Notes: generated from the sequence alone by a model not told the origin. Shown: positions 26,172 to 49,811, numbered from the stretch's first letter. The stretch: 64,000 nt of DNA from Caldilineales bacterium (GCA_019695115.1 JAIBAP010000017.1:8416-72415), one strand, 5' to 3'. Made by a program: numbers and translations.

Positions 26172-26245
26172 ATACCCACGGCAGGATTTGAACCTGCGAC
26201 TTCTTGCTCCGGAGGCAAGCGCTCTATCCGCTGAGCTACGTGGGC
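26172..26245 (-). tRNA. tRNA-Arg (anticodon CCG)
   Basis: Minus-strand read GCCCACGTAGCTCAGCGGATAGAGCGCTTGCCTCCGGAGCAAGAAGTCGCAGGTTCAAATCCTGCCGTGGGTA gives a cloverleaf, T-loop GGTTCAAATCC, and anticodon loop CTCCGGA. Confidence 0.85.
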
Positions 26246-33324: not shown

Positions 33325-34557
33325 TCAATAAACAAAATCGCGCAGATTGTAGGGCACGCGCTGAGGCCCCCCCGACGCCGGGCCAGGGGGCGGCAGGGTG
33401 AGGGCGGCGCGGATGGCTCTCTCCTGCGCCTGGGCCAGGGCCGGGTCGGGCGCGTCCACGCCGTCGGCCGCGGCCAGGGCCAGATAGGGGGCATCCGGGT
33501 CGGGCTGGAAAGGGCTGAAGTAGATCAGGTCGCCCGCGGCCAGGGCCATGGCGTCGAGGATGGCGGTGGTGTCGGCGATGTGGCCGCGGTCGAAGCGCCG
33601 CCCGCCCACGCCCGTGAGCACGATCACGCCTACCTGCACACCCGCCGCTTTCAGCCGGCGCACGGCATCGAGCATAGCGGCGGCGGTGCTGGGTTTGCGC
33701 AGCCAGGCCAACAGCGGCTCGTGCCCGCTTTCCAGGCCGATGTAGACGCGGCGCAACCCCAGGCGGCGCAGCGCCCGGAAATCGTCCACCGTCTTGCGCT
33801 CGGCGCTGAGGCCATCGATGAAGGCATAGAGGCCGGTGATGCCGGTGGGATGGGCGGCCAACCAGGGGCGGCGCTGGCCGGGCGGCAGGTCATCGGGCAT
33901 GATCTCGAAAGCGCGATGGAGGACATCGAGCAGGGGCAGCAGGCGCGACTGAGGCATGATCAAGGCATTGGCGTCGGCCAGGAAGATGCTGCGGCGCAGA
34001 AGCAGGCCGGGGCCGAAGAAAGCGCGCACGGCTTCGATGTGGCGGGCGAACTCGTCTTCGCTCTTGATGCGGAAGCGCACGCCGCGATAGAGGGCGCAAA
34101 ACGTGCAGGTGTTGAACGAACAGCCCTCGGTGGCCTGCAACACCAGGGCCTGGTATTGGTCGGGCGGCAGGATGGCGACGGGGCGATAGATGGCGCCAAA
34201 GCGGGCGACATCGGCGGCGTAGTCGAAGCTCAGGCCGCGCTCCACCACCTGGGCAAACTCCGGCTGCAGGTCGAGCGCCGCCAATTGGCCCAGATCGGCG
34301 CGCAACTGGGCCAATAACTCCGCGGTCTCGCCTTCGTCCAACCAGAGGCGCTGCCGCGGGGCGCCGGCCTGGCGCCAGCGCGCCAGCACCCGGCCATCCA
34401 GCCCTCGCCGCAGGTTGCGCCCCTCGCGAAAGGCCCCGATCAAGCGCCCGGCCAGGTCGAGCGTGTAGACCAGGCCGCCGCTGAGACTGATGTTGAGGGC
34501 GTCATCGAGCCGAAGATGGGCCTGGCGACCGTCGGCAAGACGGAGGTCGTGATGCAT
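33325..34557 (-). CDS. Radical SAM enzyme with ~135-aa N-terminal extension
   Basis: Cys cluster EGCSFNTCTFC (reads as CX4CX2C) and glycine-rich/ribose-motif region RVYIGLESGHEPLLAWL…VGVIVLTGVGG. ATG at rc about 34557 (MHHDLRL). Confidence 0.75.
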   Translation of the reverse strand: MHHDLRLADGRQAHLRLDDALNISLSGGLVYTLDLAGRLIGAFREGRNLRRGLDGRVLARWRQAGAPRQRLWLDEGETAELLAQLRADLGQLAALDLQPEFAQVVERGLSFDYAADVARFGAIYRPVAILPPDQYQALVLQATEGCSFNTCTFCALYRGVRFRIKSEDEFARHIEAVRAFFGPGLLLRRSIFLADANALIMPQSRLLPLLDVLHRAFEIMPDDLPPGQRRPWLAAHPTGITGLYAFIDGLSAERKTVDDFRALRRLGLRRVYIGLESGHEPLLAWLRKPSTAAAMLDAVRRLKAAGVQVGVIVLTGVGGRRFDRGHIADTTAILDAMALAAGDLIYFSPFQPDPDAPYLALAAADGVDAPDPALAQAQERAIRAALTLPPPGPASGGPQRVPYNLRDFVY

Positions 34558-34594
34558 GTGGGCGGTTCGGCTATCGTGTCTTGCTTCGTGTGCG

Positions 34595-37120
34595 TCACGC
34601 CTGACCTGGCTGCCCCCTCGCCAGGACATCGCTGCCGGGTTCATCAACTGGCACGTCGCCGGCTTCTTCCTCAGCCGCTTCGTCCTCGCCTGCCCCGGCT
34701 TCGTCTTCTTCCTCTTCATCCTTGCCGCTGTGCAACTCTTGCATGCGGTCGTGCGCGGCCTGGAGCGCCGCCAGCACCCGGCCGTTGATCGAATCGGCGG
34801 GGTAGTTGCCTTCCTCGTCCATCTCGCCCATCGCCAGCCCCGTCAGCACTTCCAGCGCCTGGTCGACCGTCGTCACCGCCAACAGATGGAAGCGCCCGTT
34901 GGCTACGGCTTCCACCACATCCTCGCGCAAGACCAGATGCTCGACATTGGCCTGCGGCACGATCACGCCCTGGCTGCCCGTCAGTTCGCCCAAGGCCCGG
35001 CAGGTGTCGAAAAAGCCCTCCACCTTCTCGTTCACGCCGCCGATGGGCTGCACATCGCCGTGCTGGTTGATCGAGCCGGTGATGGCCAGGTCCTGGCGCA
35101 GGGGCAGGTCGGCGATGGCCGAAAGCAGGACGCACAGCTCGGCCACCGAGGCGCTGTCGCCCTCGACCCCCGCGTACGACTGCTCGAAAACCAGGGTGGC
35201 GTGCAGACTGAGCGGCAGGAGGCGGGCGTAGCGGCCGGAGAGGAAGGAACTGAGGATCATCACCGCTTTGGAGTGGATGGGGCCGCTGAGCCGGGCCTCG
35301 CGCTCGATGTCGATCACCCCCCCGCGCCCAAGAAAGGTGCGGGCGGTGATGCGGCTGGGGACGCCGAAGCTGCTGTTGCCCAGTTGCAGCACCGAAAGGC
35401 CGTTGATCTGGCCCACACGCTCGCCACCCACTGACATCAACATGATCCCGCGCCCGGTTTCCTCGCGCACCCATTCTTCGTAGCGATTCCCGCGCTGGCG
35501 TTTCTCGTCGATGGCCTGTTGGACATCAGCCGCCGTCACCAGGTCGCGGCCGTTCTGTCCGGCCCAGTAGCTGGCCTCTGTCACCAGGTCGGCGATATCG
35601 CGGAAGCGGGTGGACAGATAACGCTGGTCGCCCACCAGCCGCGAGCCGAAATCCACCACCTGCGCCGCTGCCGCCGGCAAGAAATGGCGTTCGTTCTGCT
35701 GCCGGCAGAGGGTGGCAATGAACTGCGCATAGTCCTGGATGTGTTCGGCATCGCGCGGCATGCGGTCGTCGAAATCGGCCTGCACCTTGAACAGCTCGTC
35801 GAAATCTTCATCGTAGGACGACAACAGATAATAGAGATAAGAAGACCCCGCCAACACCACCTTCAGGTTCAGGGGGATAGGCTCCGGCTCCAGGACCGAG
35901 GTGGAGATCAGCCCCAACGATTGGGCGTACTCCTCCACCCGCACCACCCGTTCCTTCAGCGCCCGCTTGAGCGCGTCCCAGGCCTGCGGTCGTTCCAGCA
36001 CGGCGGTGGCATCCAACACCAGGTAGCCGCCGTTGGCGCGGTGCAATGCGCCCGGCCGCACCATCGTGAAATCGGTGAACAGCGCCCCCATCACCGCCTG
36101 GTGCTCCACCCGCCCGACCAGATTGGCGAAATTGGGGTTGCTCTCGTACACCACCGGCGCGCCGAGGCCATCGCCATTGTCCACGAATAAGTTGATGCTA
36201 TAGCGGCGCAATAAGCCTTCGGCCCCCACAGCCTGCATCGCCGCCTGCAGATCGCCAGCCTTGCCATCCCCGCCCTTGAAGGCTTCGACATTGGCGACCA
36301 GATCTTCGGTCATGGTCTGCAAGTGGCGCTGGACATCGGGCAGGTCGTCGAAGCGGCTGTGCAGTTCGGCCAGGGGATGTTGGATGGTGAGCCGGGCAAC
36401 GCTTTCATCCAGGGCTGACATCTCGGCGTTGGCCTGGTTTTCGCGCTGGCGCATCTTGATGATGGCGGTATCCAGATCTGCCTGGAGTTTTTCGCGCAGT
36501 TTCAGCAGCTTGTCGCGCTGTTCTTCGGTCAGTTGTTCGAACTGGGCGTCGGTGATCGGTTTGCCGCCGATGACCGGGGTGAGCATGAAGCCGCCGGGCA
36601 GCCGGATGAGCGAGAAGTTGTATTTCTCCACCTGCTCGCTGATCTGGCGGAAGCGGGCTTCGTGGTCTTCTTTGAGGGCGGCGATGATCTTGTCGCGCTC
36701 TTTGACGTAGTCTTCGCTCTCGAACGCGGCCGGGATGGCGCGCTGAAGCTCTTTGACCAGGGCTTCCAGATCGGTTCGTAGCGCCCGGCCCTTGCCTGCC
36801 GGCACCAGGATGGCGTTGGGATGCGACGGATCCTGAAAATTGTGGACGTAAATCCAGTCGCCGGCCGGGGCCAGGCGGGCGGCGTCGGCCTGGATGAACT
36901 GGCGCACAGCGGTGGATTTGCCGGTGCCGGCCGGCCCGACGACGAAGATGTTGTAGCCTTTGGCGCTCATCCCCATGCCGAACTGCAGGGCGCGCAAGGC
37001 CCGCTGCTGGCCGATGATGCCGGGGAGGTCGGGCAAGTCGGCGGTGGAGGTGAAGTTGAACTGGCCGGGGTCGCAGAACGGGCGGATTTGGGCGGCGGTG
37101 AGGGCAGTAAGAGATGACAT
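34595..37120 (-). CDS. LonC/YcbZ-family Lon-like protease (AAA_32-type N-domain plus Lon S16 proteolytic domain)
   Basis: Walker A VVGPAGTGKST. C-terminal region is co-linear with E. coli YcbZ (IGQINGLSV…, EQSYAGVEGDSASVAELCVLLSAIADLP…, GGVNEKVEGFF). Acidic C-terminal tail. Confidence 0.85.
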   Translation of the reverse strand: MSSLTALTAAQIRPFCDPGQFNFTSTADLPDLPGIIGQQRALRALQFGMGMSAKGYNIFVVGPAGTGKSTAVRQFIQADAARLAPAGDWIYVHNFQDPSHPNAILVPAGKGRALRTDLEALVKELQRAIPAAFESEDYVKERDKIIAALKEDHEARFRQISEQVEKYNFSLIRLPGGFMLTPVIGGKPITDAQFEQLTEEQRDKLLKLREKLQADLDTAIIKMRQRENQANAEMSALDESVARLTIQHPLAELHSRFDDLPDVQRHLQTMTEDLVANVEAFKGGDGKAGDLQAAMQAVGAEGLLRRYSINLFVDNGDGLGAPVVYESNPNFANLVGRVEHQAVMGALFTDFTMVRPGALHRANGGYLVLDATAVLERPQAWDALKRALKERVVRVEEYAQSLGLISTSVLEPEPIPLNLKVVLAGSSYLYYLLSSYDEDFDELFKVQADFDDRMPRDAEHIQDYAQFIATLCRQQNERHFLPAAAAQVVDFGSRLVGDQRYLSTRFRDIADLVTEASYWAGQNGRDLVTAADVQQAIDEKRQRGNRYEEWVREETGRGIMLMSVGGERVGQINGLSVLQLGNSSFGVPSRITARTFLGRGGVIDIEREARLSGPIHSKAVMILSSFLSGRYARLLPLSLHATLVFEQSYAGVEGDSASVAELCVLLSAIADLPLRQDLAITGSINQHGDVQPIGGVNEKVEGFFDTCRALGELTGSQGVIVPQANVEHLVLREDVVEAVANGRFHLLAVTTVDQALEVLTGLAMGEMDEEGNYPADSINGRVLAALQAAHDRMQELHSGKDEEEEDEAGAGEDEAAEEEAGDVPVDEPGSDVLARGQPGQA

Positions 37121-37121
37121 G

Positions 37122-38165
37122 CTAGGCTCCTGATCGGCGTTTTGTCCTGGCGCGGCCCACCCATCCGGCCAGCCCGGCCAGCCCGCCTGCCAACAGCAGC
37201 ACGGTGGCCGGTTCCGGGATTTCGGGCGGGGGCGGCGGCCCGGTGATGATCACCTGCACCCGGTTGGAATCGCGCTGGTTGCCTTCAGCGAAGGTCACAA
37301 AGGCGCTGTTGTGCAGTGTGACCGGGGTCTGGACGGGGAGAGACGCCTTGACCCGGGCTTTGATCGTGACCAACACCTGTTGGCCTGGGTTCAGTGTCCC
37401 GATCTGAACCATGACTTTGTGGGCGGCGGCATCGTAGCTGGCGGTTCCCTGGCTGCTGCTGGCGCTCACGTTCTCGAGAAAGCTGCTGAGGGGGTCGCTG
37501 AGGATGACTTGGGTGGCAGGGGCGTTGCCCTGGTTGCCGACGGTCAGGGTGAAGGTGATGGGGGCGGTGGTGAAGATGCTGGCGCTGCTGGCGGCCTTCG
37601 TCACCGCCGGATCGACGACCGAGCTAAAGAGCAACTCGTGCGAGGCCGTGACCGGGGCGGCGTTGGCGGCGCCGAGCCTGGCGTTGTTGACCAGCAACAG
37701 CTCAGCCTGATCGCCCGTCCCGCCCACCTCCGGCAGCTGGTTGCGCGCCACCCGCACCTCGAAGCTCAGGCAGGTCTCTGGCCCCGGCGCCAGATCGCCC
37801 AGATCCCAGGTCAGGCGATGAGGGGCGGGGTCATAAACGCCGGTGGAGGAGCCGGGCAGGTAGTCGAGATTGGCCGGCAGATCATCGGTCAGCGTCGCGG
37901 CGCTGGCGGTTTCATCGCCGGTGTTCTGGAAGCACAGCCGGTAGGCAAAGACATCCCCCAACACCACCGGGCCTGTCACCGCCGCCGTTTTGCTCAGGCG
38001 CAGGGCCGGCCCCGAACCAGCGGCCCGGCCGGCCGGCGCCGCCCCCAGAGTCAAAAGAAGCACGAGCATGAGTAACACGCCTGGGCGAGGACGACCGGCT
38101 GCGTCTCTCATCGCTGTTTGCAGTCGCTGCCGAAGTAGTGCGAACATGCTCGTGCTTTCATTCAT
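37122..38165 (-). CDS. DUF11-repeat surface protein with PEP-CTERM sorting signal
   Basis: Signal peptide, conserved-repeat (DUF11-like) beta domains. C-terminus PEIPEPATVLLLAGGLAGLAGWVGRARTKRR is a PEP motif plus TM plus basic cluster. Stop lies 1 nt from the Lon-like start. Confidence 0.75.
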   Translation of the reverse strand: MNESTSMFALLRQRLQTAMRDAAGRPRPGVLLMLVLLLTLGAAPAGRAAGSGPALRLSKTAAVTGPVVLGDVFAYRLCFQNTGDETASAATLTDDLPANLDYLPGSSTGVYDPAPHRLTWDLGDLAPGPETCLSFEVRVARNQLPEVGGTGDQAELLLVNNARLGAANAAPVTASHELLFSSVVDPAVTKAASSASIFTTAPITFTLTVGNQGNAPATQVILSDPLSSFLENVSASSSQGTASYDAAAHKVMVQIGTLNPGQQVLVTIKARVKASLPVQTPVTLHNSAFVTFAEGNQRDSNRVQVIITGPPPPPEIPEPATVLLLAGGLAGLAGWVGRARTKRRSGA

Positions 38166-38267
38166 GGCATGGGCGCTGGCGTGAAGGCCAGCAGAAGCGG
38201 GAGGTGGGGTTGGGGCTGCGGCGGCGTGAGTGAAGACGCCGGCCGGCCGCGCCCCGACCCGGACGGG

Positions 38268-38639
38268 TTAGCGGGAGCGAAGCGCGTCGCGAATCTCGGT
38301 CAGCAGCTTCTCTTCGGTCGAGGGGCCAGGCGGCGGCGCCGCGGCTTCTTGCTTCTTGAAGCGTTGGTAGGGGACGACGACGAAATAGTAGACGACCAGG
38401 GCGATGAGGATGAAGTTGACCACTGCGGTCAGAAACGAGCCGTACTTGATCACGCTGTTGTTGAGCGTCAGCGTCAAGTCGTCGAAGCTGGGGGTGCCGA
38501 CGAAGATGCCGATGATGGGCATGAGCACGTTTTCGACCAACGAGGTGATCACGGCGCCAATGGCCGCAGCCATGATCAGACCCACAGCGATGTCGATCAG
38601 GCTACCCTTGAAAGCGAATTCCTTGAAACCCTTGAACAT
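38268..38639 (-). CDS. mscL: Large-conductance mechanosensitive channel
   Basis: MFKGFKEFAFKGSLIDIAVGLIMAAAIGAVITSLV… is the canonical MscL N-terminus and TM1. Confidence 0.9.
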   Translation of the reverse strand: MFKGFKEFAFKGSLIDIAVGLIMAAAIGAVITSLVENVLMPIIGIFVGTPSFDDLTLTLNNSVIKYGSFLTAVVNFILIALVVYYFVVVPYQRFKKQEAAAPPPGPSTEEKLLTEIRDALRSR

Positions 38640-38760: not shown

Positions 38761-40725
38761 CTACGACACCAGCACGTAGCCAAAGCCCCGCACCGTGCGC
38801 AGAAACTGGACATCGCGGCGGGTGGGGTGCTGGAGTTTCTGGCGGAGCCGCCAGACCAGCACCCTGAGTGTATCCAGCGAGATCTGTTCGTCCAACGCCC
38901 ACATCGCCGACCGCAGCTGGTCGTGCAGGACGACCTGATCGGCATGTTCGGCCAGATAGACGAGCAGGCGGTACTCGTTGTGCGACAGCGTCAGCAACTC
39001 GTCGTTGACCCATGCTCGCTGCAAGGTGGTGTTGATGCGAATCGTACCTTCGCCGACGACCAGGAGATCGGAAGCAATCGGCGGCGAGGCGGCGGCGCCG
39101 TTATCGGCTGCGGGTGCACTCTCGGAGACCAGGCGATAGCGGGCCGGCTGACTCTCGTCTTTGACCGGCAACCACAATGCAAACGAAGTCGTCTGCCCGT
39201 CCCTTGTCGCCTCACTTTGTCTGATCTCGGTCGATAGCCGCCCCCCGTGTCCCTCGGCGATGAGCCGCGCCCTGGCCAGGCGGAATTCGGACACGCGTTC
39301 CTCGTCCGTCAACCGCACCGAGCGCAGCGATGACGCCGGCTCGCTGGCCCTTGCCTCCACACCGAAGCGGATGATCACCCACCGATCCCAGGTGTGTGCT
39401 CGCGCCAGCAACACCTGGCTGCGGGTGCGGGTCAGGGAGACATCGATCAAAACGCCGAGGGCTTCTTCCAGCAAGGTCGGATCGCCAACGATGGCGGGAA
39501 GTGGCTGCTTCAGCTCCAGGTCGAGGCGGACGCCGCGCAATCGGGCCAGGTCGCGCCACATGCCTACGATCTGCTCCATCGTCTCGGCCAGGTCGATGGG
39601 CATCCAGCGCATGTCGGTCAGCGCCGTTTCGATGTGCTGGATGCTTTCCACGTCCTTGATCAGCGAATGCACCTTGCGGGCGTTCTTGCGGATGGCATCG
39701 AGGGCATCGACAGACTGGGGGGCAGGCGCCGATTCGGCGGTGGTGCGCAGCCATTCGGCGTAGCCTTCGACCAGGGTAAGGGCCGAACGGATGTCGATCA
39801 CGATCAGATCGAGCAGGGCGCGACGCTCGCGATCCAGGCTGGTGAGGCGGTCGTGGGCCTTGCGCAACTCCTGCGCCTGCCTCTCCATCTGTTCCTGCAG
39901 CAGGGTCAGTTCGTTTCGTTGTTGGCGCAACGATTGCTCGGCCAACGCCTCGGCCTCCATCTGCCGCACCGCCAGGACGAGGCCGGTCTGGCCGGGGTGG
40001 GGCATGATCAGCACATCGCAGGGGCGCAGGTGGTCTTCGTCCAGCAGCAGACCGGGCAGCCGCCAGGGTGGCGCCACTGCCCGGGCGATGCTTTGCAGCT
40101 CGTCCTCCAACCCGGCCAGCGAGGGGAAGACATCGGCCACCGGCCAGCCCGCCAACGACCGCCGCCGGTACTCGACGAAATTCGAGGTGGCGGCCTTGAT
40201 CAGCAGTTGTTCATCCACGACGGCCATCATCAGCCCCAGACGCTCGCAGATAGTCAGCATGTCGTCGGTATCGAGGTCGAGGCTTGTGGGCGTGTGGTTC
40301 ATGGCCCAGGCCGTGGCTGAGGCCGTGGCTGAGGCCAGGCGGCTGGCGTTACGCCGGTGCATCTCTTGTTGGGCCGGCGCCATTGCGGCCGTGACGTCCA
40401 CTAGCGTGATCAGCAGGCCGGCCGGTTGTGTGTGTGCTTCGACGCGGATATCGAAGTAGCCGGGCGCCGCCGACGGGGCCAGGCGATGGACGACGCCGTG
40501 TAATTCCCAGGCCGGCGTGCGGCCCTGGGCCACGGCCAGGAGGGTCTCGTCGGCGCCGGCAAAGGCCGGCAGCACCTCGGCCAGGTGGATGCCCGGCTGG
40601 CGCCGCCCGACCACGGCCCAGAACCCCGCCGATGCCTCCTGCACCCGCAGGTCGTCGTCCACGAGGGCGTAAGCCGCGCCGGGCGAGGGCGGCGGCTGAT
40701 CGGGCCGGGAAGAGGAAGTGCTCAT
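38761..40725 (-). CDS. Transcriptional regulator: sensor domains plus histidine-kinase-like (His-less) core plus C-terminal OmpR/PhoB-type winged-helix DNA-binding domain
   Basis: C-terminal LTLSHNEYRLLVYL…LRTVRGFGYVL is a trans_reg_C domain. The central DHp/HATPase-like region lacks the phospho-His (…DIRSALTLVEGY…). Confidence 0.65.
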   Translation of the reverse strand: MSTSSSRPDQPPPSPGAAYALVDDDLRVQEASAGFWAVVGRRQPGIHLAEVLPAFAGADETLLAVAQGRTPAWELHGVVHRLAPSAAPGYFDIRVEAHTQPAGLLITLVDVTAAMAPAQQEMHRRNASRLASATASATAWAMNHTPTSLDLDTDDMLTICERLGLMMAVVDEQLLIKAATSNFVEYRRRSLAGWPVADVFPSLAGLEDELQSIARAVAPPWRLPGLLLDEDHLRPCDVLIMPHPGQTGLVLAVRQMEAEALAEQSLRQQRNELTLLQEQMERQAQELRKAHDRLTSLDRERRALLDLIVIDIRSALTLVEGYAEWLRTTAESAPAPQSVDALDAIRKNARKVHSLIKDVESIQHIETALTDMRWMPIDLAETMEQIVGMWRDLARLRGVRLDLELKQPLPAIVGDPTLLEEALGVLIDVSLTRTRSQVLLARAHTWDRWVIIRFGVEARASEPASSLRSVRLTDEERVSEFRLARARLIAEGHGGRLSTEIRQSEATRDGQTTSFALWLPVKDESQPARYRLVSESAPAADNGAAASPPIASDLLVVGEGTIRINTTLQRAWVNDELLTLSHNEYRLLVYLAEHADQVVLHDQLRSAMWALDEQISLDTLRVLVWRLRQKLQHPTRRDVQFLRTVRGFGYVLVS

Positions 40726-41240
40726 GCCTGAGGTGCAAGCAGCGACTGCGCCAGCGACTGGAAGGCCGCTTCGACCTGGGCGCCATTGAGGGCGCTGGTG
40801 AGGAAATAGGGCGCTTTCCAGCGGGCCGCCAATTCCTGCAGCCGGCGTTCGTAGGGCGCCGGGTCAGGCGCCAGATCGATCTTGTTGCAGGCGAAGACCA
40901 GGGCGGCGTGGCGGTTGATCTGGGTGAAGCTGGTGGCGTAGGTATTGAGGAGGCTGAAGGTGTCGGGGCGGAGCACATCGGCCACCAGCAGGGCGCCGGC
41001 GCCCCCGCGATAGTAGGACGCCTCCATCTGGCTGAAGGTCTCGCCGCCGGCCAGGTCCCACAACACCAGCACGACCCGCTTGCCCGCCGCGGCCAGCGTC
41101 ACCTCTTTGCGGCTGACGTGGACGCCGATCGTCGCCAGGTAGTCGGTCTCGAACTTGTTGTAGACATAACGCCGGGCAAGGCTGGTCTTGCCGACGGCAA
41201 AATCGCCCAGCAGACAGACCTTGCGTTGAATAACTTCCAT
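40722..41240 (-). CDS. Ras-like small GTPase (MglA/Roc-like)
   Basis: G1 GDFAVGKTS, G3 WDLAGGE, G4 NKID. ATG at rc 41238-41240 with RBS GGAGGT. Confidence 0.8.
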   Translation of the reverse strand: MEVIQRKVCLLGDFAVGKTSLARRYVYNKFETDYLATIGVHVSRKEVTLAAAGKRVVLVLWDLAGGETFSQMEASYYRGGAGALLVADVLRPDTFSLLNTYATSFTQINRHAALVFACNKIDLAPDPAPYERRLQELAARWKAPYFLTSALNGAQVEAAFQSLAQSLLAPQA

Positions 41241-41257
41241 CGCTGCGACCTCCAAGA

Positions 41258-42640
41258 TCAGGGGAGAATGGCCACCCATCGCGCCGGAACCCAACCATCA
41301 TAGTCGGCCGGGCCTGTGGGCGGATAGGCGATATGCACCCACGGCGGCCGGCGCTCGATGATGCGAACGATCTGGCCCAAGAACGCCACCCGTTGGCTGG
41401 GACGCTCGTCGGGATCGGGGATGCGGCGGAGATAGACATTGCCCACCATCCTGCCCAGGACAATCGCGGCCGTGGTCGTGGCGGCGATGGTGGGGCTGGG
41501 GGTGGGCGTGGGGGTTGGTGTGGGTGTGGTTGTGGGGCTGGCGGTGGGCGTGGGGGTGGCGGTGGGGGTGGGGCTGGGGGTGGAGGTTGGCGTCGCCGAG
41601 GGTGGGAGCGTGGGGGTGGCGGTGGGCGCCGTCAAGTAGAGCACGGCCGTTGGGGCCAGCGCCGCCATGACTCGCGGCGCCGCCCGGTAGGTCAGCCAGC
41701 CGCAACTGCAGAGCAGGGCCATGAAGACCAGCGCCAGGACGACCAGGCCGGTGGTCGGCGGCCGGGGCGGGCCGGCCTCGTGGCCGAGCAACAGCCTGTC
41801 GAGGGGCGGCGCCAGGAGTTCTTCGCTCCCTGGGTCGCCGCGGTAGTCGCGCACGACGGCCAGATGATTCATGTGCACGGCCGCCAGCGCCTCGCGCATG
41901 GTCTGGTAGATGTCGGCGGGCGGGATGCCGCGCCCGACCAGGGCCAGGTAGGTGTAGCGCCCTTCTTCCAGCAGGATCATCTGGTCGCTGTACTTGATCT
42001 CGTGCAGCGCCTCGTCTCCCTCCCCGCCCTGGAAACTCTCGCGGGCAAAACTGCGGATGGCCGTCAACAGCGCCGCCATCAGGTCGGCATCCTCCAGATC
42101 GGCCGCCAGGCTCCGTTGGGCCATGACCAGGCCGGTGTCGTTGTGAATGAGGAAGACGTGTCCGGTCTGCCAGGGCAAGGCTTCTCGCAGAGCCGCCGTC
42201 CCCTCATCCACCCCGCTCATCCGCGCCCGCAGGCGCTGCCAGGCCCCGCCCAGGCTGAAGGCGCGTTGCACGCGGCTGTCCACCTGTCGGGCCAGCGTCT
42301 GCAGGGCCTCGGCCAGGGCCCGCTGGATGGTGCGACCGATCACCGGCGTCAGGGCGGCGATGATCGATTCGCGCTGTTCCTGCACTTGTTTTTGCAGCGC
42401 CGCGGCCACCACCGGGCGGATGGCTTCGGCGAATTCGTCCGGGTTGGTGCGCGCGCGTTCGGCCAGAGCGCCGATCAACAGTGGCTCGATCAGCGCCACA
42501 AGATGGTCGGCGTCTTCGGATTGCGCCCGCACCTTGTCCAGCTCGGTGCGCAGCGCCTCCAGTTGTTTGCGGTCCTGCGTCAGCAGGATTTCGCGCAGCG
42601 CCTCCAGTTCACTGGCGAAGGCGACGGAACCGGTTGTCAT
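41258..42640 (-). CDS. Membrane protein with coiled-coil N-region, Roadblock/LC7 (MglB-like) domain, TM helix, Pro/Thr linker and SH3b-like C-terminus
   Basis: …GHVFLIHNDTGLVMAQRS…DADLMAALLTAIRSF…ILLEEGRYTYLALVGRG fits the roadblock fold. TM LVVLALVFMALL. PT linker. C-terminal …DYDGWVPARWVAIL. Confidence 0.5.
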   Translation of the reverse strand: MTTGSVAFASELEALREILLTQDRKQLEALRTELDKVRAQSEDADHLVALIEPLLIGALAERARTNPDEFAEAIRPVVAAALQKQVQEQRESIIAALTPVIGRTIQRALAEALQTLARQVDSRVQRAFSLGGAWQRLRARMSGVDEGTAALREALPWQTGHVFLIHNDTGLVMAQRSLAADLEDADLMAALLTAIRSFARESFQGGEGDEALHEIKYSDQMILLEEGRYTYLALVGRGIPPADIYQTMREALAAVHMNHLAVVRDYRGDPGSEELLAPPLDRLLLGHEAGPPRPPTTGLVVLALVFMALLCSCGWLTYRAAPRVMAALAPTAVLYLTAPTATPTLPPSATPTSTPSPTPTATPTPTASPTTTPTPTPTPTPSPTIAATTTAAIVLGRMVGNVYLRRIPDPDERPSQRVAFLGQIVRIIERRPPWVHIAYPPTGPADYDGWVPARWVAILP

Positions 42641-42672
42641 GGTCTTTTGCCCTGCCGGGGCCGGTGGCTACG

Positions 42673-43065
42673 CTATTTGCCGTCCCGTTTCAGCTGTTCG
42701 CCCATCTGGATTAGCATGGAAGCCAGGTCGAAACGCGTGGTCTTCTCGTAGGCCAGCTGGTCGAGCCGGGCCGTCACCGCCGACCGCAGTTCAGCGAGCC
42801 ACCGTTCCGTATCAGCGCGCAATTCCTGGAATTGCCTCTTCATCTCGGCCTGAGTCTGGCGGAAGTTCTCGGCGGTGCGGTCATCCAATGCCTGCATTTG
42901 CGCCTCGATCGCCGCCTGAGCGGTGGTCATTCGCTCCTCGTGCTCGGTGAAACGATGGTTGTATTCCTCCATATTACGGCCAAAGAGGATGTCACGGATC
43001 TTGAAGACATCGCTCATGGCGTCTACGACTGCCTCTTGCTGCGCCTGCGCATCTGTTTTTGCCAT
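42673..43065 (-). CDS. Small coiled-coil protein (first gene of the GTPase operon)
   Basis: ATG at rc 43065 (MAKTDAQAQQE). Heptad-rich about 130 aa. No enzyme motif. Confidence 0.4.
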   Translation of the reverse strand: MAKTDAQAQQEAVVDAMSDVFKIRDILFGRNMEEYNHRFTEHEERMTTAQAAIEAQMQALDDRTAENFRQTQAEMKRQFQELRADTERWLAELRSAVTARLDQLAYEKTTRFDLASMLIQMGEQLKRDGK

Positions 43066-43269
43066 CGAAGAAGACCTCCGGGAGAAAGAAGTTGGGGGAA
43101 AGAGATGAAAAGTTAGGAACAGAACCAGAACCATCTATTTGTCGGGGCGATAGTCAGCAATACTGACAATCAACCTTACATCGGGGGGTATCTTACTTCA
43201 ACCCCTGCCAGGTGTCAATGACGGCAGCGATCCCCGCCTCGTGGAGTCCGTGTTGCCCATGCTATACTG

Positions 43270-44538
43270 ATGGCGATGGTGCTCTTGCTCAACCCTCCCT
43301 CTCCAGCCGACGCCGTTGCCAACCGCGAGGGCGTGGCGGGTTTTGGCGCCCTCTCGACCGGCTTTGCCTACCCGCCCCAGACGCTGGCCGTGGTCGTCGC
43401 CGCCTGCCGCCAGGCCGGGTTGGGGGCGGCGGTGTTGGATGCAGTTGGTGAACGCCTTGATTGGGCGGCGACGGTCGCCCGGATTCAGGTCGCGGCGCCG
43501 GCGCTGTTGGCCGTTCTGTCCAGCCACACCACGCTGGCGGCCGACTGCGCCGCCCTGGGTGGGCTGCGCCATGCTTTCCCCGGCCTGCCCACGGTCGCCA
43601 TCGGCGCCGGCGCCCGTTTCGACGCCGATCGGCTGCTGGCGGCGGGGGCATCACACGTCCTGTTGGGCGACCCTGACCTGGCCCTGGCCCGGCTGGCCGC
43701 GGCGCCCCTGCCCCCGCCCGGCCCCGTGCGCGTGCGCGACCTGCTCCCCCACCAGCACAATCATGCCGGCCTGGTGCGCGACCCCGGCCTCTTGCCTCGC
43801 CCGGCCTGGGACGCCGTCCCCTGGTCACAGTACGGCTTCCTCACCCTTTCCACCGCCCGCGGCTGCGATGATGGCTGCACCTTCTGCGCCTATATGGCCG
43901 TGCAGGGGCGCTCGTTTCGACCCCGGCCGGCGGCCGAGGTGGTGGACGAGATGCTGTGGTTGCAAGACGTCTTTCATCCGCGCCGGATCATGGTGCGCGA
44001 CCTGGTTTTTGCCGCCGACCGCGACCGCGCTCTGACCATCGCCCGCCAGCTGGCCGCCGCTGGCTTTCGCACCGCCTGGGAATGCGAATCGCGGCCGGAA
44101 CATTTCGACCCGACGTTGCTCAAACAGATGGCGCAGGCCGGTTGTACAGTGATCAAGCTGGGGATCGAGACCACCGACCCCGAGCTGCTGGTCAAACTCG
44201 AACGCATCGCCGCCGTCCAGGAAGCCGCTCCCTACCTGGCCTATACCCGCCGCGTCATCGCTGACGCCCGCCGCTACGGCATTCGCACCCGCGTTTTCGT
44301 CCTCGCCGGGCTGCCCGGTCAGACGGCCGCACACACCGCCGCCACGGTCGCTTTCCTGCGCCAGGCCCGGCCCGATTTCGTCCACTCGCGCCCCTACACC
44401 TCCTTTCCCCATGTCCCCCTCGGCCCGGCCCCATCCTCGCCCGACCTGGACGAACAACTGCGCAGCCTCGAAGCCGTCGCCGCCGAATGCCAAACCCGCT
44501 CTGCTCGCCCTTCCCTCCTCCGCCGCTGGCTGAAATGA
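43270..44538 (+). CDS. B12-binding-domain radical SAM enzyme
   Basis: N-terminal cobalamin-binding-like Rossmann region (MVLLLNPP…VAIGAG…). Canonical CDDGCTFC (CX3CX2C). …IKLGIETT… glycine/ribose motif. Confidence 0.8.
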   Translation: MAMVLLLNPPSPADAVANREGVAGFGALSTGFAYPPQTLAVVVAACRQAGLGAAVLDAVGERLDWAATVARIQVAAPALLAVLSSHTTLAADCAALGGLRHAFPGLPTVAIGAGARFDADRLLAAGASHVLLGDPDLALARLAAAPLPPPGPVRVRDLLPHQHNHAGLVRDPGLLPRPAWDAVPWSQYGFLTLSTARGCDDGCTFCAYMAVQGRSFRPRPAAEVVDEMLWLQDVFHPRRIMVRDLVFAADRDRALTIARQLAAAGFRTAWECESRPEHFDPTLLKQMAQAGCTVIKLGIETTDPELLVKLERIAAVQEAAPYLAYTRRVIADARRYGIRTRVFVLAGLPGQTAAHTAATVAFLRQARPDFVHSRPYTSFPHVPLGPAPSSPDLDEQLRSLEAVAAECQTRSARPSLLRRWLK

Positions 44539-44600
44539 CACAAATGGGAGAAACACAGATAATACTTTTTATCTGTTTTATGCAACTGTTACGCAGATGA
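44535..44600 (+). CDS. Candidate 21-aa small ORF (MTQMGETQIILFICFMQLLRR) in AT-rich tandem element, copy 1
   Basis: ATG overlaps the rSAM stop (ATGA). Sequence is unusually AT-rich. Frame differs from copy 2 by one T in a T-run. Confidence 0.2.
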   Translation: MTQMGETQIILFICFMQLLRR

Positions 44601-44609
44601 TATGATAAT

Positions 44610-44687
44610 ATGACACAAATGGGAGAAACACAGATAATACTTTTATCTGCTTTATGCGACTGTTGCGCTGGTGATCTGGCTAAATGA
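44610..44687 (+). CDS. Candidate 25-aa small ORF (MTQMGETQIILLSALCDCCAGDLAK), copy 2
   Basis: Tandem duplicate of the previous element. Cys-rich C-terminus (CDCC). Confidence 0.25.
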   Translation: MTQMGETQIILLSALCDCCAGDLAK

Positions 44688-44695
44688 TAGCAATG

Positions 44696-44748
44696 GGAGA
44701 ATCTCCAATCTCCAATCTCCAATAACCAATAACCAATCTCCAATAACC
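44696..44748. repeat. CTCCAAT / AACCAAT heptamer array
   Basis: atctccaatctccaatctccaataaccaataaccaatctccaataacc. Confidence 0.6.
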
Positions 44749-44757
44749 ACCCCCCCC

Positions 44758-45891
44758 ATGCCCCACCTCCTCCCCAACCTCGTCCGCTTTGTCCGCTTGC
44801 TGCGCGGGGCCGGCATCGCGGTCACGCCGGCGCAGGCGGCCGACCTGGCCGCGGGGCTGAGCTATGTCGATGTCGAACGCCGCGAGGATGTGAAAAACGC
44901 GGCGCGGGCCGTGTTGGTCAGCCGGCGCGAGCAGATGGCGCTGTTCGACCTGGCCTTCGACCTTTTCTGGCGGGCAGACGCACAGCGCCCACCGGCCACG
45001 GCGGGCGACTGGCGGCGGTTGGAACAGCAACTGCGGTCGAACCGTCGTCCACTGGCCGGGCCGAGCCAGGCCGGGCTTCAAGCCATCGACCAGGAGCCGT
45101 TCGAGGCGGTGACGGGCGAATACAGCGCCATCGAAACCCTGCGCCACAAACGTTTCGACGACCTGATCGCCGATGAAATGGCCCTTGTCAACCGGCTGAT
45201 CCGGGCCATGCCCTGGCAGTTGCCCCCGCGCCGCACCCGGCGCCAATCCCCCGCCTCTCACGGCGCCCAGTTGGATTGGCGGCGAACGCTGCGCCGCAGT
45301 TGGCGTTTTGGCGGCGAAGCGATGACCCTGCGCTGGCGAAAACGGCAGACCAAGCCCCGACCTTTGGTCGTCCTCTGCGATGTCAGCGGTTCGATGGAGC
45401 GATACAGCCGGGTGCTGCTGCAATTCATCTACGCGGTGGGCCGCGGTCGCAGCCCCATCGAAGCCTTCGTTTTCAGCACCCGGCTCAGCCGCATCACCAC
45501 CCATCTCCGCCGCCAGAGTCTGAACCACGCCCTGGCTGCGGTGAGCGCCCAGGCCAGCGACATGGGCGGCGGCACCCAGATCGGACAGGCTCTGAAGAGC
45601 TTCAACCAGGCCTGGGCCAGGCGGGTGCTGGGCCGTGGGGCCATCGTCGTCCTCATCAGCGATGGCTGGGACAGAGGCGACCCGGAGGAAATGCGCCGCC
45701 AGATGGATCGCTTGCAACGCAGCAGCCACCGCCTCATCTGGCTCAACCCGCTCCTCGGCTCACCCGGCTACCAGCCCCTGACCAGGGGGATGCAGGCCGC
45801 CCTCCCCTTTGTCGATCACTTCCTGCCCATCCACAATCTGCACAGCCTGGAACAACTGGCCGCCCTCTTCGACGGCGACAACCTTCGCTGA
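44758..45891 (+). CDS. VWA-domain protein, CoxE family
   Basis: …PLVVLCDVSGSMERYSRVLLQF…GGGTQIGQAL…VVLISDGWDRGDPEE is a MIDAS-containing VWA domain of CoxE type. Confidence 0.8.
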   Translation: MPHLLPNLVRFVRLLRGAGIAVTPAQAADLAAGLSYVDVERREDVKNAARAVLVSRREQMALFDLAFDLFWRADAQRPPATAGDWRRLEQQLRSNRRPLAGPSQAGLQAIDQEPFEAVTGEYSAIETLRHKRFDDLIADEMALVNRLIRAMPWQLPPRRTRRQSPASHGAQLDWRRTLRRSWRFGGEAMTLRWRKRQTKPRPLVVLCDVSGSMERYSRVLLQFIYAVGRGRSPIEAFVFSTRLSRITTHLRRQSLNHALAAVSAQASDMGGGTQIGQALKSFNQAWARRVLGRGAIVVLISDGWDRGDPEEMRRQMDRLQRSSHRLIWLNPLLGSPGYQPLTRGMQAALPFVDHFLPIHNLHSLEQLAALFDGDNLR

Positions 45892-46062
45892 AGTTGCGTG
45901 TTGCGTGTTCCGTGATGCGTGTTGCGTGTTGCGTAGCGCCTGCGGCGCAAACGCCTCCCGGAACACGTAGCACGAACCCCGAACCCCGAAGCACGAAACA
46001 CGGAACACGTAGCACGAACCCCGAACCCCGAAGCACGGAACACGGAACACGGAACACTCCCC
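45892..46062. repeat. Palindromic GTGTTGC/GTGTTCC … GGAACAC heptamer array (171 bp)
   Basis: gttgcgtgttgcgtgttccgtgatgcgtgttgcgtgttgcgtagcgcctgcggcgcaaacgcctcccggaacacgtagcacgaaccccgaaccccgaagcacg… with repeated 30-bp subunits. Confidence 0.7.
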
Positions 46063-46063
46063 C

Positions 46064-46375
46064 ATGCACGATCTCCTCCCCACCATCACACGCTGGCAAA
46101 ATGAAGGCAAAGGCGTCGCCCTGGCCACCGTCGTCCAGGTCTACGGCTCGGCCCCGCGCCCGTTGGGGGCCAAGATGGCGGTCTCGTCATTGGGCGAGAT
46201 GGCCGGCTCGGTCAGCGGCGGCTGCGTCGAAGGCGCCGTCGCCCAGGAATCGTTGGCGGTCATCGCCCAGGGTCAGCCGCGTCTGCTTTCCTACGGCATC
46301 GCCGACGAGTGGGCCCAGGGCGTGGGCCTGGCCTGCGGCGGCGTGATCGAAGTCTTCGTGGAGCGCATTTCATGA
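46064..46375 (+). CDS. XdhC/CoxI-family protein, N-terminal domain only
   Basis: 103 aa matching the XdhC_CoxI N-domain (…GAKMAVSSLGEMAGSVSGGCVEG…). No Rossmann C-domain follows. Confidence 0.65.
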   Translation: MHDLLPTITRWQNEGKGVALATVVQVYGSAPRPLGAKMAVSSLGEMAGSVSGGCVEGAVAQESLAVIAQGQPRLLSYGIADEWAQGVGLACGGVIEVFVERIS

Positions 46376-47833: not shown

Positions 47834-48841
47834 CTATCGCATCGCGGCCGCAGGTTCCGCCGCCATCTGCACGATGGTGAGCGAGCCGAGGCCGTGGTCG
47901 ATCTTCAGGTCAAGGTGGTTCGGGGCCGTGGCGGCGTCGGGGGTGACGTAGACATTGCCCTGCTGGTTGAAGGCCCCGCGCACCTGGCGACTGCCCAAGC
48001 CGGAGTCGATCTGAATCCGGGCGCCGACGCCAGCCGGGATGAAGACCGTCTTGTCGCCGATGCCGCCCTCGATTTCGGCCTGCAATTGGCCTTGAGCGGG
48101 CAGTGTCAGGGTCAGGGCGCCGATGCCGCCGTCCACCTCCAGCCGCGTGAGGTTGAGCGAGCGCAGGTCGAGGGTGCGGTCGCCCAGGCCGCCGTCGATA
48201 TCCAGGCGCATGGGCAGGGCCGGGTTGAGGTTGAGATGCCAGTGGCGCTCGCCCAGCCAACCGCCAGTGAAGAAATAGTGCCAGGGGATCGATTGCTCGA
48301 TCTTGACGCGCGCCTCGCTCCTGTGCAGGCGAACGCTCTGCTTCAGGCTTTCGTCTGGCCCCATCTGGGCCGAGCCTGAGGCCAGGGCGCCGTCAGACTG
48401 GCCGGCCTGCAGGCGCATACGGCCAATCCCCATCGCCAACTTGACGCGGGCGCTGGCCGCGCCTTCGGGCGCTAGAAGGATCTCTTCGCTGTGGGTCTCT
48501 TGGCGGCGGAGGCGCGAGAGCACCAACACATCCAGCCCGACGGCCACCAGGAGCAGCGGCCAGAGCCGGCCAAGCGTCTCCCACATCTCCCATTCGACCA
48601 GACCGAGATTGTCGATCAGGAAGCCGGCGGCAAAGGCGATGAGGGCGAGGGGGAAGAACAGGCTGCCGCCACCCAGCAGCATACTGACGGCTGCCGCCAT
48701 CACCAGCAGCGGCCACAGCCCAAAAATGAAGTCCCAGAGCGTGGCGTCGATGACGCCCAGGTTATAGAACAGGAGCAGGAGGCCCAGGATGATGAGCATG
48801 AGCGGGCCGATGAGCTTGCTGAGACGTTGACGAGTTGGCAT
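47834..48841 (-). CDS. Membrane protein with LiaF-like / toastrack (DUF2154/DUF4097-like) C-terminal domain
   Basis: ATG at rc 48839-48841 (MPTRQRLSKL). Four TM helices. C-terminal beta repeats …DIDGGLGDRTLDL…VDGGIGALTLTL…IEGGIGDKTVFI…. Confidence 0.6.
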   Translation of the reverse strand: MPTRQRLSKLIGPLMLIILGLLLLFYNLGVIDATLWDFIFGLWPLLVMAAAVSMLLGGGSLFFPLALIAFAAGFLIDNLGLVEWEMWETLGRLWPLLLVAVGLDVLVLSRLRRQETHSEEILLAPEGAASARVKLAMGIGRMRLQAGQSDGALASGSAQMGPDESLKQSVRLHRSEARVKIEQSIPWHYFFTGGWLGERHWHLNLNPALPMRLDIDGGLGDRTLDLRSLNLTRLEVDGGIGALTLTLPAQGQLQAEIEGGIGDKTVFIPAGVGARIQIDSGLGSRQVRGAFNQQGNVYVTPDAATAPNHLDLKIDHGLGSLTIVQMAAEPAAAMR

Positions 48842-48893
48842 GGGGGTCTCCTGGAGCGGTGCGACGCACGCCGTGCGTCGCACCTGTGCTGGG

Positions 48894-49811
48894 TCAGCTA
48901 CCGCGGTAGGATTCGATGACGATGCTGCCGATGCCGATATCGACTTCGATATCGACGCGATTCTCGGCCGTCTCGAAGCCGGGCGTGAGATAGACACTGC
49001 CCTGGCGCTGGAATTCGCTGGCCACATCCATGTTGCCGATGCCGCTGTCGGCCTGGATACGGGCGGCCATCCCTTCGGGGATGCGAAGTACGAGCTTACC
49101 GATGCCGCCATCCACTTTGGCGTGGAACCGGCCCTGTTCGGGCAGCAGGAGAACGGCGTCGCCCACACCGATGTGGAAGGCCAGCCGGCTGAGTTCGAGC
49201 CGGTTCAGATCGACATTCGCCTCGCCCACGCCAACACTCAGATCGAGATCGAGCGTTGCTTCCTGGCTCAGGTCCAGATCCCACTGTTCGGCGTTGTTGC
49301 GGCTGAGATTGGGGGTCAGGGTCACGTTCGGTCCGGCGATCAGCAGACGGTAGGTCGCCTGGCTGCCGGAGGTGGTGAAGGACTCATCCAACCTCTGGTT
49401 GGGACGCAGGCTGACGCCGCCCTCGATCAGTTTGCCATCTCCGGCTGCCGGGCCAAGTCGAAAATCGCCTGCCCCGGCCCGGATCTTGATCTCCGCCCGG
49501 TCGATGCCGGTCAGGACTTGGCTGATCGTGTGGCTGGTGGCGGCCCCAGAGGGAGCGGTCTGCTGCACCAGGTACCAGCCGCCGCCGAAGAGCAGGGCCA
49601 GCACGAGGACGGCCACGAGCAGCGAGCCGATCATCGACCGGCGCCCGATCAGGAGATCGAGGCCGAGGCCGATGAGGATGATGGGCCAGAGGCTGAGCAG
49701 GCTGCGCCAGATGCTCCAGTCCACCACCCCCAGGTTGTTGAGCAGAAAAAGCAGGCCGGCGCTGATGAGAAGGAGGGGGCCGAAAAGCCCGCCGCGTCGT
49801 TCGTTTTTCAT
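48894..49811 (-). CDS. Second LiaF-like / toastrack membrane protein
   Basis: ATG at rc 49811 with RBS AGGAGTG. TM helices plus …KVDGGIGKLVLRI…ADSGIGNMDV… repeats. Confidence 0.6.
   Translation of the reverse strand: MKNERRGGLFGPLLLISAGLLFLLNNLGVVDWSIWRSLLSLWPIILIGLGLDLLIGRRSMIGSLLVAVLVLALLFGGGWYLVQQTAPSGAATSHTISQVLTGIDRAEIKIRAGAGDFRLGPAAGDGKLIEGGVSLRPNQRLDESFTTSGSQATYRLLIAGPNVTLTPNLSRNNAEQWDLDLSQEATLDLDLSVGVGEANVDLNRLELSRLAFHIGVGDAVLLLPEQGRFHAKVDGGIGKLVLRIPEGMAARIQADSGIGNMDVASEFQRQGSVYLTPGFETAENRVDIEVDIGIGSIVIESYRGS

Follow-up and report, generated by a model that had tools for sequence, protein, structure and literature searches.

What kind of signalling system is formed by four neighboring genes around a small Ras-like GTPase in a Caldilineales bacterium, and how might such a GTPase reach the control of transcription? 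The genes, here called A, B, C and D, occupy positions 38761-43065 of a 64,000-nucleotide stretch of DNA (hereafter the window; GCA_019695115.1 JAIBAP010000017.1:8416-72415) from a metagenome-assembled genome (MAG) of the Caldilineales (Chloroflexota). Their open reading frames (ORFs) lie close together in one orientation on the minus strand, with gaps of 32 nucleotides (nt) between A and B and 17 nt between B and C and an overlap of 4 nt (ATGA) between C and D, and they match the public gene calls on identical contigs, including the length of 130 amino acids (aa) for the product of A. A sequence-only reading of the same DNA, which had drawn this minus-strand set and its coordinates correctly, took it for a module of the MglA/MglB kind whose unusual architecture leads from a GTPase to a DNA-binding protein. 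Our results indicate that the cassette is a Group 1 Rup small-GTPase signalling module, a kind already described in 2014, and that its output, protein D, is a pseudo-kinase scaffold fused to a DNA-binding domain. We think it probable, if by no means certain, that the module acts as an envelope-anchored GTPase switch in which transcription is controlled conformationally, without phosphotransfer.

The Group 1 Rup system was described computationally by Wuichet & Søgaard-Andersen (Genome Biol Evol 2014/2015; PMC4316618). Its parts are a coiled-coil protein (DUFY); DUFX, which combines an unknown conserved domain, a transmembrane helix and a peptidoglycan-binding domain; a Rup GTPase without the Gln of the G3 motif; and an output protein, either a diguanylate cyclase/phosphodiesterase or a histidine kinase, whose N-terminal region carries an invariant Gln that was suggested as a possible residue of a GTPase-activating protein (GAP) acting in trans. 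Chloroflexi are among the members, and it was proposed that no bacterial proteins are closer to eukaryotic Rab, Ras, Rho and Ran than the Group 1 Rup GTPases (PMC4316618). The window holds the same four components in the order DUFY, DUFX, Rup, output. The product of A is a cytoplasmic protein that we assign to DUFY, adjacent to B in the order given in Table S2 of that study, with its coiled coil backed by weak Pfam matches; B, for which we found at least 84 close cluster representatives, is DUFX, with a cytoplasmic domain, a transmembrane helix and an SH3b-like tail in the place of the C-terminal peptidoglycan-binding domain; C, at 172 aa, falls within the 150-240 aa of the Rup lineage, keeps the G3 Asp and eukaryote-like G motifs and has no catalytic Gln in G3; and residues 153-281 of D form the N-terminal output domain with the invariant Gln. 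A direct comparison is possible for Roseiflexus, whose Rcas_3601 is listed in Table S2 with DUFX, DUFY, Rup and a 174-aa GTPase (PMC4316618): the Roseiflexus locus in our survey has this gene order and a 174-aa GTPase, and its genes are homologous to those of the window. Searches of a paper library for later or experimental work on Rup systems, and for fusions of kinase-like proteins to winged helices, returned nothing relevant.

Protein C matched the Pfam Ras family at 1.8e-34, and its G motifs can be read throughout (G1 GDFAVGKT, G2 Thr in YLATIGV, G3 WDLAGGE, G4 NKID, G5 SAL), so that G1, G3 and G4 are indeed intact, as had been claimed. The sequence-only reading had left the G2 threonine and the catalytic residues to be checked: the threonine is there, and the equivalent of the catalytic Gln61 is replaced by Gly. 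Among solved structures in the PDB, C comes closest to a Thorarchaeota Rab (2e-25) and to Rab7/Ypt7; the best 60 matches include no MglA. We aligned C with 69 GTPases encoded next to relatives of B, 70 sequences in all, and found G1 as GDFAVGKT and G3 as WDLAG[S/G]E across the set; the Ras-Q61 position is Gln in 0 out of 70 and most commonly Ser (34), Gly (24) or Glu (3), and the Ras-G12 position is aromatic in 70 out of 70 (Phe in 67, Tyr in 3; Phe in the window). Because the Q61 position is never Gln and the G12 position is aromatic, intrinsic GTP hydrolysis by C would be expected to be poor, and the catalytic residue may perhaps be supplied by a partner protein.

These features also bear on the MglA/MglB framing of the sequence-only reading, which did not hold for the GTPase: C is Rab/Ras-like, keeps the G3 Asp (WDLAGGE) and belongs to the Rup lineage. 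The window shares with MglA/MglB of Myxococcus and Thermus a small GTPase and, by prediction, a regulator with a Roadblock fold. It differs in the lineage of the GTPase and in its G3 motif, in that B does not stand alone as a Robl_LC7 protein, and in that the conserved partner is a signalling output rather than a set of polarity factors. Membership of the MglA/MglB family was thus rejected on the G3 Asp and the Rab-like nearest structures. One could still imagine a polarity or motility module of this type, with B as an MglB-like GAP that places the GTPase at the pole and D as a bystander regulator; the core of B does fall in the fold class of MglB (3t1r, 1j3w and 3t12 are among its Foldseek matches), and MglA/MglB are encoded elsewhere in Chloroflexota (Table S2, PMC4316618). 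Yet C has its nearest relatives in Rab7 and the Thorarchaeota Rab, B is a 460-aa membrane protein that carries an extracytoplasmic domain of wall-binding type and has no Pfam Robl_LC7 match, and the conserved fourth gene encodes a signalling output with a common N-domain, so that we regard a polarity module as very improbable.

What kind of protein is B, then? An AlphaFold2 model built from a 76-sequence alignment (mean predicted local distance difference test score, pLDDT, 79) gives, between conserved N-terminal helices (whose conserved positions include P76, P99 and G102) and the transmembrane helix, a domain with pLDDT mostly 80-97 over residues 146-285 (Table 1). In Foldseek searches of the PDB the best match to this core was 3kye, a Streptomyces Roadblock/LC7 domain (E 3.9e-4, target-normalised template-modelling (TM) score 0.66, 23% identity), followed by TRAPP, AP-sigma, Sec22, the Mon1-Ccz1 longins, MglB, LAMTOR, dynein LC7 and the C-terminal domains of Rag proteins; almost all of these structural matches are GTPase-regulatory platforms. 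The predicted structure has the Roadblock/longin fold, with the order alpha-beta-beta-alpha-beta-beta-beta at residues 146-258 and a Foldseek probability of 1.00, and target-normalised TM scores to 3kye, TRAPP, AP sigma, MglB and LAMTOR are 0.55-0.70. The structure-prediction check proposed for 41258-42640 therefore did return a Roadblock/longin fold. Sequence comparisons gave another answer. Pfam (E up to 10) had no Robl_LC7 match to B, nor any other family, and NCBIfam (E up to 1) had none; a profile of full-length B matched, among PDB sequences, low-complexity Pro/Thr (PT) stretches and, weakly, SH3 domains, and no Roadblock; and a core-only profile searched against 5.8 billion proteins found 104 matches, all of the DUFX type, with PF03259 in 0 out of 104 (matches from Bacteroidota, cyanobacteria and Gemmatimonadota were named OmpA or MotB at their source). 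With hhalign, the comparison of B to human DYNLRB1, entered as the sequence identical to 1z09, had a probability of 0.08. B accordingly does not belong to the Roadblock/LC7 family PF03259, nor is it a stand-alone MglB, being long, membrane-bound and alike in fold alone, and we offer the Roadblock assignment as a fold-level prediction rather than as family membership.

The remainder of B agrees with what the sequence-only reading had proposed. Its PT linker is evident in the sequence and gave low-complexity matches alone in profile searches. The SH3b-like tail has no Pfam match on B itself, but tails of homologs carry PF08239 or PF06347, both of SH3b type, the model has beta strands there, and profiles weakly match the SH3b structures 2krs and 2kq8; homologs from Calditrichota and Cytophagia have BON+OmpA in its place. 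B has no signal peptide, and its lone transmembrane helix comes after some 290 residues, so that B is predicted to have its N-terminus inside and its C-terminus outside. Of the earlier description of B, then, the linker and the tail stand, and the Roadblock domain stands as a predicted fold and falls as a sequence family.

Two other comparisons are invited by the fold. Actinobacterial conservons (AGPS; CvnA-D; PMC13343842, PMC13621833) likewise combine a small GTPase, a Roadblock-fold protein and a histidine-kinase-like protein, and 3kye, the best match of the B core, is itself a Streptomyces domain. The window, in contrast, has no DUF742 (CvnC), its GTPase is Rup/Rab-like and not the MglA Group 2 of conservons, its Roadblock-like domain lies inside a membrane protein, and the kinase-like D is soluble, PAS-linked, catalytically dead and DNA-binding. 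Conservon membership was rejected, as no Pfam DUF742 match was found in any of the four proteins and the GTPase is Rab-like. Eukaryotic and Asgard Rab and Rag GTPases with longin/Roadblock regulators (TRAPP, Mon1-Ccz1, Ragulator; PMC10933270) resemble the window in that a Rab-like G domain adjoins a Roadblock/longin-fold platform; here the cassette is bacterial, anchored to the membrane through a protein with a wall-binding domain and connected to bacterial outputs, and the homology of the platform is by predicted fold only. It would be tempting to go further and see in DUFX a genuine Roadblock/longin homolog, strongly diverged, that binds the Rab/Ras-like Rup GTPase, regulates it and, in Caldilineae-like bacteria, drives DNA binding through a phosphorylation-free kinase fossil. 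This idea is speculative, and we hold it as a tentative one.

The AlphaFold2 model of the output protein D (pLDDT 80) begins with two PAS-like domains and continues through a DHp-like hairpin and a CA-like domain to a winged helix, the last two being linked by about 30 disordered residues (525-552). The second N-domain carries a conserved EQxLRQQRNELxLL motif with Q264, Q268 and N271: among 28 fusion proteins R267, Q268, Q269, N271, E272 and L275 do not vary and Q264 reaches at least 90% conservation, and in a set of 78 output proteins of diverse type Q264, Q268 and N271 are each conserved at 90% or above. As to the kinase, the DHp and CA folds are present in the model, whose Foldseek matches (E 1e-16 to 1e-9) are to WalK, YF1, HK853, RetS and NifL, the best being PAS-histidine kinases, but the residues of catalysis are gone. 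Aligned with intact kinases at the same position in other loci, D reads IVIDIRSAL where their H box is AAHELRTPL, and it also lacks the N-box Asn and both glycine motifs, G1 and G2; Pfam gave a weak HisKA match below the gathering threshold (8e-4) and none to HATPase_c. The former His position is hypervariable in the 28 fusions (I/V/F/W/Y/N/R/G/Q/T/H). Since D has lost its phospho-acceptor His together with the N, G1 and G2 boxes, we rejected its identity as a functional histidine kinase. At the C-terminus, Trans_reg_C matched residues 578-652 at 5.4e-17 over profile positions 4-77 of 77, the C-terminus of PhoB was also matched, and no Response_reg match was found in D, so that no receiver domain precedes the winged helix. 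Thus a kinase-like core without a phosphorylatable His, ending in an OmpR-type winged helix, had been rightly recognized from the sequence.

Hybrid two-component systems of Bacteroides also place sensor and DNA-binding functions in one polypeptide, but they keep the His, the ATP site and the receiver, all three of which D has lost. NifL, RetS and DivL, of which NifL and RetS were found as structural matches, likewise use the kinase fold as a conformational scaffold; unlike D, they lack a DNA-binding domain and exert their effect on separate partners. Coordinates of the genes and of their domains are collected in Table 1.

Table 1. Positions of the four genes, of the domains of proteins B and D, and of a putative promoter in the window
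Feature	Position	Strand	Description or basis
Gene A	42673-43065	(-)	130 aa coiled-coil protein; start ATG at 43065
Gene B	41258-42640	(-)	460 aa bitopic membrane protein
Gene C	40722-41240	(-)	172 aa Rup-type (Rab/Ras-like) small GTPase
Gene D	38761-40725	(-)	654 aa, PAS-PAS-pseudo-histidine-kinase-winged helix
B residues 1-141, conserved long cytoplasmic helices	42218..42640	(-)	AlphaFold2 helices 6-41, 44-65, 67-127, 130-141
B residues 146-285, predicted Roadblock/longin-like domain, alpha-beta-beta-alpha-beta-beta-beta-alpha	41786..42205	(-)	AlphaFold2, Foldseek
B residues 296-328, single transmembrane helix	41657..41755	(-)	hydrophobic stretch GLVVLALVFMALLCSCGWLTY; AlphaFold2 helix 296-328
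B residues 332-392, extracytoplasmic Pro/Thr-rich linker	41465..41647	(-)	sequence; AlphaFold2 pLDDT <50
B residues 394-458, extracytoplasmic SH3b-like beta domain	41267..41461	(-)	AlphaFold2 beta strands, pLDDT >90
D residues 17-132, first Rup-associated PAS-like N-domain	40330..40677	(-)	N-domain hidden Markov model (HMM), independent E-value (iE) 3e-21; AlphaFold2 PAS-like fold 18-110
D residues 153-281, second Rup-associated PAS-like N-domain	39883..40269	(-)	N-domain HMM, iE 6e-37
D residues 282-370, DHp-like helical hairpin	39616..39882	(-)	phospho-acceptor His replaced by Ile; AlphaFold2 helices 257-329, 336-370
D residues 375-521, CA-like alpha/beta domain	39163..39603	(-)	N, G1 and G2 ATP-binding boxes lost
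D residues 554-652, OmpR/PhoB-type winged-helix DNA-binding domain	38770..39066	(-)	Trans_reg_C; AlphaFold2 winged helix
Putative sigma-70-like promoter, TTGACA-17-TAAGAT	43190..43218	(-)	consensus match; upstream of gene A

How general is this arrangement? A pattern scan for relatives of B over species-representative genomes returned at least 557 stretches; among the matches listed were Anaerolineae, Caldilineae, Chloroflexia (Roseiflexus, Oscillochloris, Herpetosiphonaceae), Calditrichota and a Cytophagia-labelled genome. Neighborhoods were counted in 80 fetched loci of these stretches. In 71 out of 80 a homolog of C is found no more than 2.6 kb from B (contig ends truncate six of the other nine, and the remaining three have complete flanks), and the N-domain, searched with a profile of the second N-domain of D, is present in 70 out of 80, which bears out the co-conservation expected from a survey of genome context. 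Pfam matches among 78 proteins carrying the N-domain, any of which may match several families, indicate what follows it: HATPase_c and HisKA of histidine kinases in 38 and 37 proteins, adenylate/guanylate cyclases in 19, HD-GYP-type HD domains in six, sigma-54 activators in five, GGDEF in three, SpoIIE phosphatases in two, EAL in one, and Trans_reg_C fusions in four. A typical cassette consists of an OmpR-type regulator (receiver plus winged helix), A, B, C and an intact kinase in Anaerolineae; of C, A, B and a hybrid kinase in Chloroflexia; of A, B with its BON+OmpA tail, C and a sigma-54 activator in Calditrichota; and of A, B, C and the pseudo-kinase fused to a winged helix in the Caldilineae-like group. 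A fusion of kinase and regulator would fit as the origin of D, because the Anaerolineae cassettes hold both an intact histidine kinase and a regulator with receiver and winged helix. In five loci from Calditrichota and the Cytophagia-labelled MAG (L037, L038, L041, L068 and L079), the gene after the GTPase encodes a sigma-54 enhancer-binding protein in which the N-domain takes the usual place of the receiver. The sigma-54 output is a second, independent route from a Rup GTPase system to transcription.

The fused architecture of D was found in 29 protein clusters, whose named sources are all Caldilineales, Caldilineae or Chloroflexi, and the fusion stands next to the GTPase in eight out of eight loci examined (the window, L006, L008, L009 and L085-L088). 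The architecture that had been called unusual is therefore not so as a four-gene set, which is published as Group 1 Rup and widespread in Chloroflexota and other phyla; the term applies to the output, confined to the Caldilineae-like group.

Might D be an ordinary one-component regulator with a PAS sensor, independent of the GTPase, and its adjacency to A, B and C mere synteny? Binding of small ligands is common for PAS domains, and all parts for a response from ligand to DNA are within D; moreover, the radical SAM, VWA/CoxE and LonC neighbors of the cassette are also syntenic in a related locus, L086, which makes synteny alone weak evidence. This is nevertheless unlikely in our view, since in 70 out of 80 loci A-B-C is followed by the N-domain and its Q..Q..N motif, across classes and phyla and whatever the output domain, since C and D overlap by 4 nt, and since a GTPase lies upstream of every fusion examined, even where the relatives of D are only 33-38% identical.

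In two of the loci with a fusion, a second kinase-like gene with an N-domain stands between the GTPase and the fusion (L008 2523-3671 and L087 4733-5995). The copy in L008 has Gly for His and keeps the N, G1 and G2 ATP-binding boxes; it may be a kinase partway through its decay or else act as a partner pseudo-kinase. Both genes are relevant to another possibility, in which D, much as in RetS-GacS or DivL, acts chiefly by pairing with or titrating a genuine histidine kinase or a response regulator from another locus, and phosphorylation is still the final currency. The resemblance of D to RetS and NifL, both non-canonical kinase-like regulators, agrees with it, as do the well conserved DHp-like surface of D and the extra gene itself, with an intact CA domain and no His in L008. 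A protein with its own DNA-binding domain, however, needs no partner regulator; the window cassette holds no kinase or regulator gene; and the hypervariable H-box position argues against phosphoryl chemistry. We consider this possibility improbable too, though slightly less so than that of an independent D.

Several points weigh against a GTPase switch built around a Roadblock-like platform. The Roadblock assignment comes from one AlphaFold2 model and Foldseek E-values of about 1e-3 to 1e-4, and every sequence or profile test of B failed to detect the domain. Three loci (L013, L020 and L061) keep B without an adjoining C, and in L085 (4891-7953) A, C and D are adjacent without B, which is absent from the whole 14-kb locus; the parts of the cassette are consequently not strictly obligate neighbors. 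One fusion among the 28, P0142 (L088 949-2859), has a His at the H-box position, which could be a relic or a matter of chance at a hypervariable site. The conserved Q/N motif of D may be a structural element of the signalling helix and not a catalytic one. Finally, spacing is the one ground on which we infer an A-D operon.

Gene content, domain folds, the loss of catalytic residues and the co-conservation of the genes were shown in this analysis, and a model can be built on them in which the physical interactions, the direction of B's activity, GEF (guanine-nucleotide exchange factor) or GAP, sensing by the SH3b-like domain and the target genes are inferred parts. In this model, B would sit in the membrane with its SH3b-like domain outside on a Pro/Thr tether and its Roadblock/longin-like domain and long helices inside; B, probably together with A, would form a cytoplasmic platform that binds C and sets its nucleotide state, as GEF or GAP, C alone being presumably inefficient at GTP hydrolysis. 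GTP-bound C would then contact the PAS-like N-domains of D, and the Q..Q..N helix that follows them would relay the signal into a dimeric DHp-like bundle and may also complete the active site of the GTPase in trans. In most relatives the N-domain would drive a real histidine kinase, which phosphorylates the adjacent OmpR-type regulator. In the Caldilineae-like group, where the kinase is dead, no receiver is left and the winged helix is joined to the kinase scaffold, a conformational signal through the DHp-like helices would pass to two winged helices and alter DNA binding and transcription with no phosphotransfer. A GTPase-gated transcriptional output, as the sequence-only reading had proposed, is the most economical reading, and a plausible one.

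Little can be added on gene A from family databases, its product having no real Pfam family and weak matches of coiled-coil type. In most related loci a homolog of A is the gene directly upstream of B, and BLASTP of A against the N-terminal helices of B found no paralogy. In a Chloroflexi MAG (L073 3915-5807) the homologs of A and B form a single 630-aa ORF, which, unless it is an assembly error, may be a Rosetta-stone hint of an A-B interaction. As to transcription signals, two sigma-70-like matches were observed in the region against 0.6 expected, one upstream of A (Table 1) and the other upstream of mscL, the next gene after D, so that the second putative site weakly suggests that the unit may end with D. 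A terminator scan of the region gave a result not above chance, and Rfam found one match across the whole window, a tRNA at 26173-26245.

The genes around the cassette are conserved as well: window 33325-38639 and 43270-46375 are syntenic with L086, where D is only 33% identical. Upstream, both loci share a gene for a B12-binding radical SAM protein, VWA/CoxE and XdhC, and downstream genes for a LonC-like protease and for a further radical SAM protein; the flanking genes could be co-regulated with the cassette or reflect plain synteny. On both sides of the VWA/CoxE gene, at 44526-44749 and 45893-46057, lie AT-rich intergenic tandem repeats in a genome of about 65% GC, with units of 74 nt (x2.3), 7/14/21 nt and 42 nt (x2.2 at 98% identity), and neither has an Rfam match. 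Two genes downstream of D, at 37122-38165, we found two DUF11 repeats and a PEP-CTERM sorting signal, which would imply that this Caldilineales genome encodes an exosortase system. Together with mscL and the lonC-like gene, this DUF11/PEP-CTERM gene is an obvious candidate for a target of D. LiaF/PspC-like membrane proteins, of the type related to cell-envelope stress, are clustered at window 47834-49168 and at L001 1535-4807; on the public contig this is a few kb away from the cassette.

Relative to the description of 2014 (PMC4316618), four things are new. The range of outputs in related loci is wider, with cyclases, HD-GYP domains, sigma-54 activators and SpoIIE phosphatases in addition. 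In the Caldilineae-like group only, a kinase and regulator pair has become one phosphorylation-incompetent fusion, a dead kinase scaffold with an OmpR-type winged helix, unlike the published cyclase/phosphodiesterase or kinase outputs. In Chloroflexota an SH3b domain carried by a PT linker takes the extracytoplasmic place of the published OmpA. And the predicted fold of DUFX, there an unknown domain, suggests that the Rup lineage also uses a Roadblock/longin platform.

Should DUFX indeed be of Roadblock/longin descent, the pairing of a Ras/Rab GTPase with such a platform would extend in bacteria beyond the MglA lineage, contradicting the conclusion of 2014 that MglB homologs are not coupled to Rup GTPases (0 out of 121 Rup-clade GTPases; PMC4316618). 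The logic of GTPase and platform would then be older and broader than MglA/MglB and would bear on the origin of the eukaryotic Rab and Rag regulators, and the cassette could be a simple bacterial model of that logic. The Caldilineae variant, for its part, is a clean natural case of a two-component pathway collapsed into one polypeptide: D has lost the chemistry of the kinase and kept its fold, and has lost the receiver of the regulator, which makes it informative on conformational signalling through kinase scaffolds, and its DNA binding and transcription would offer an easy readout for the action of a Rup GTPase.

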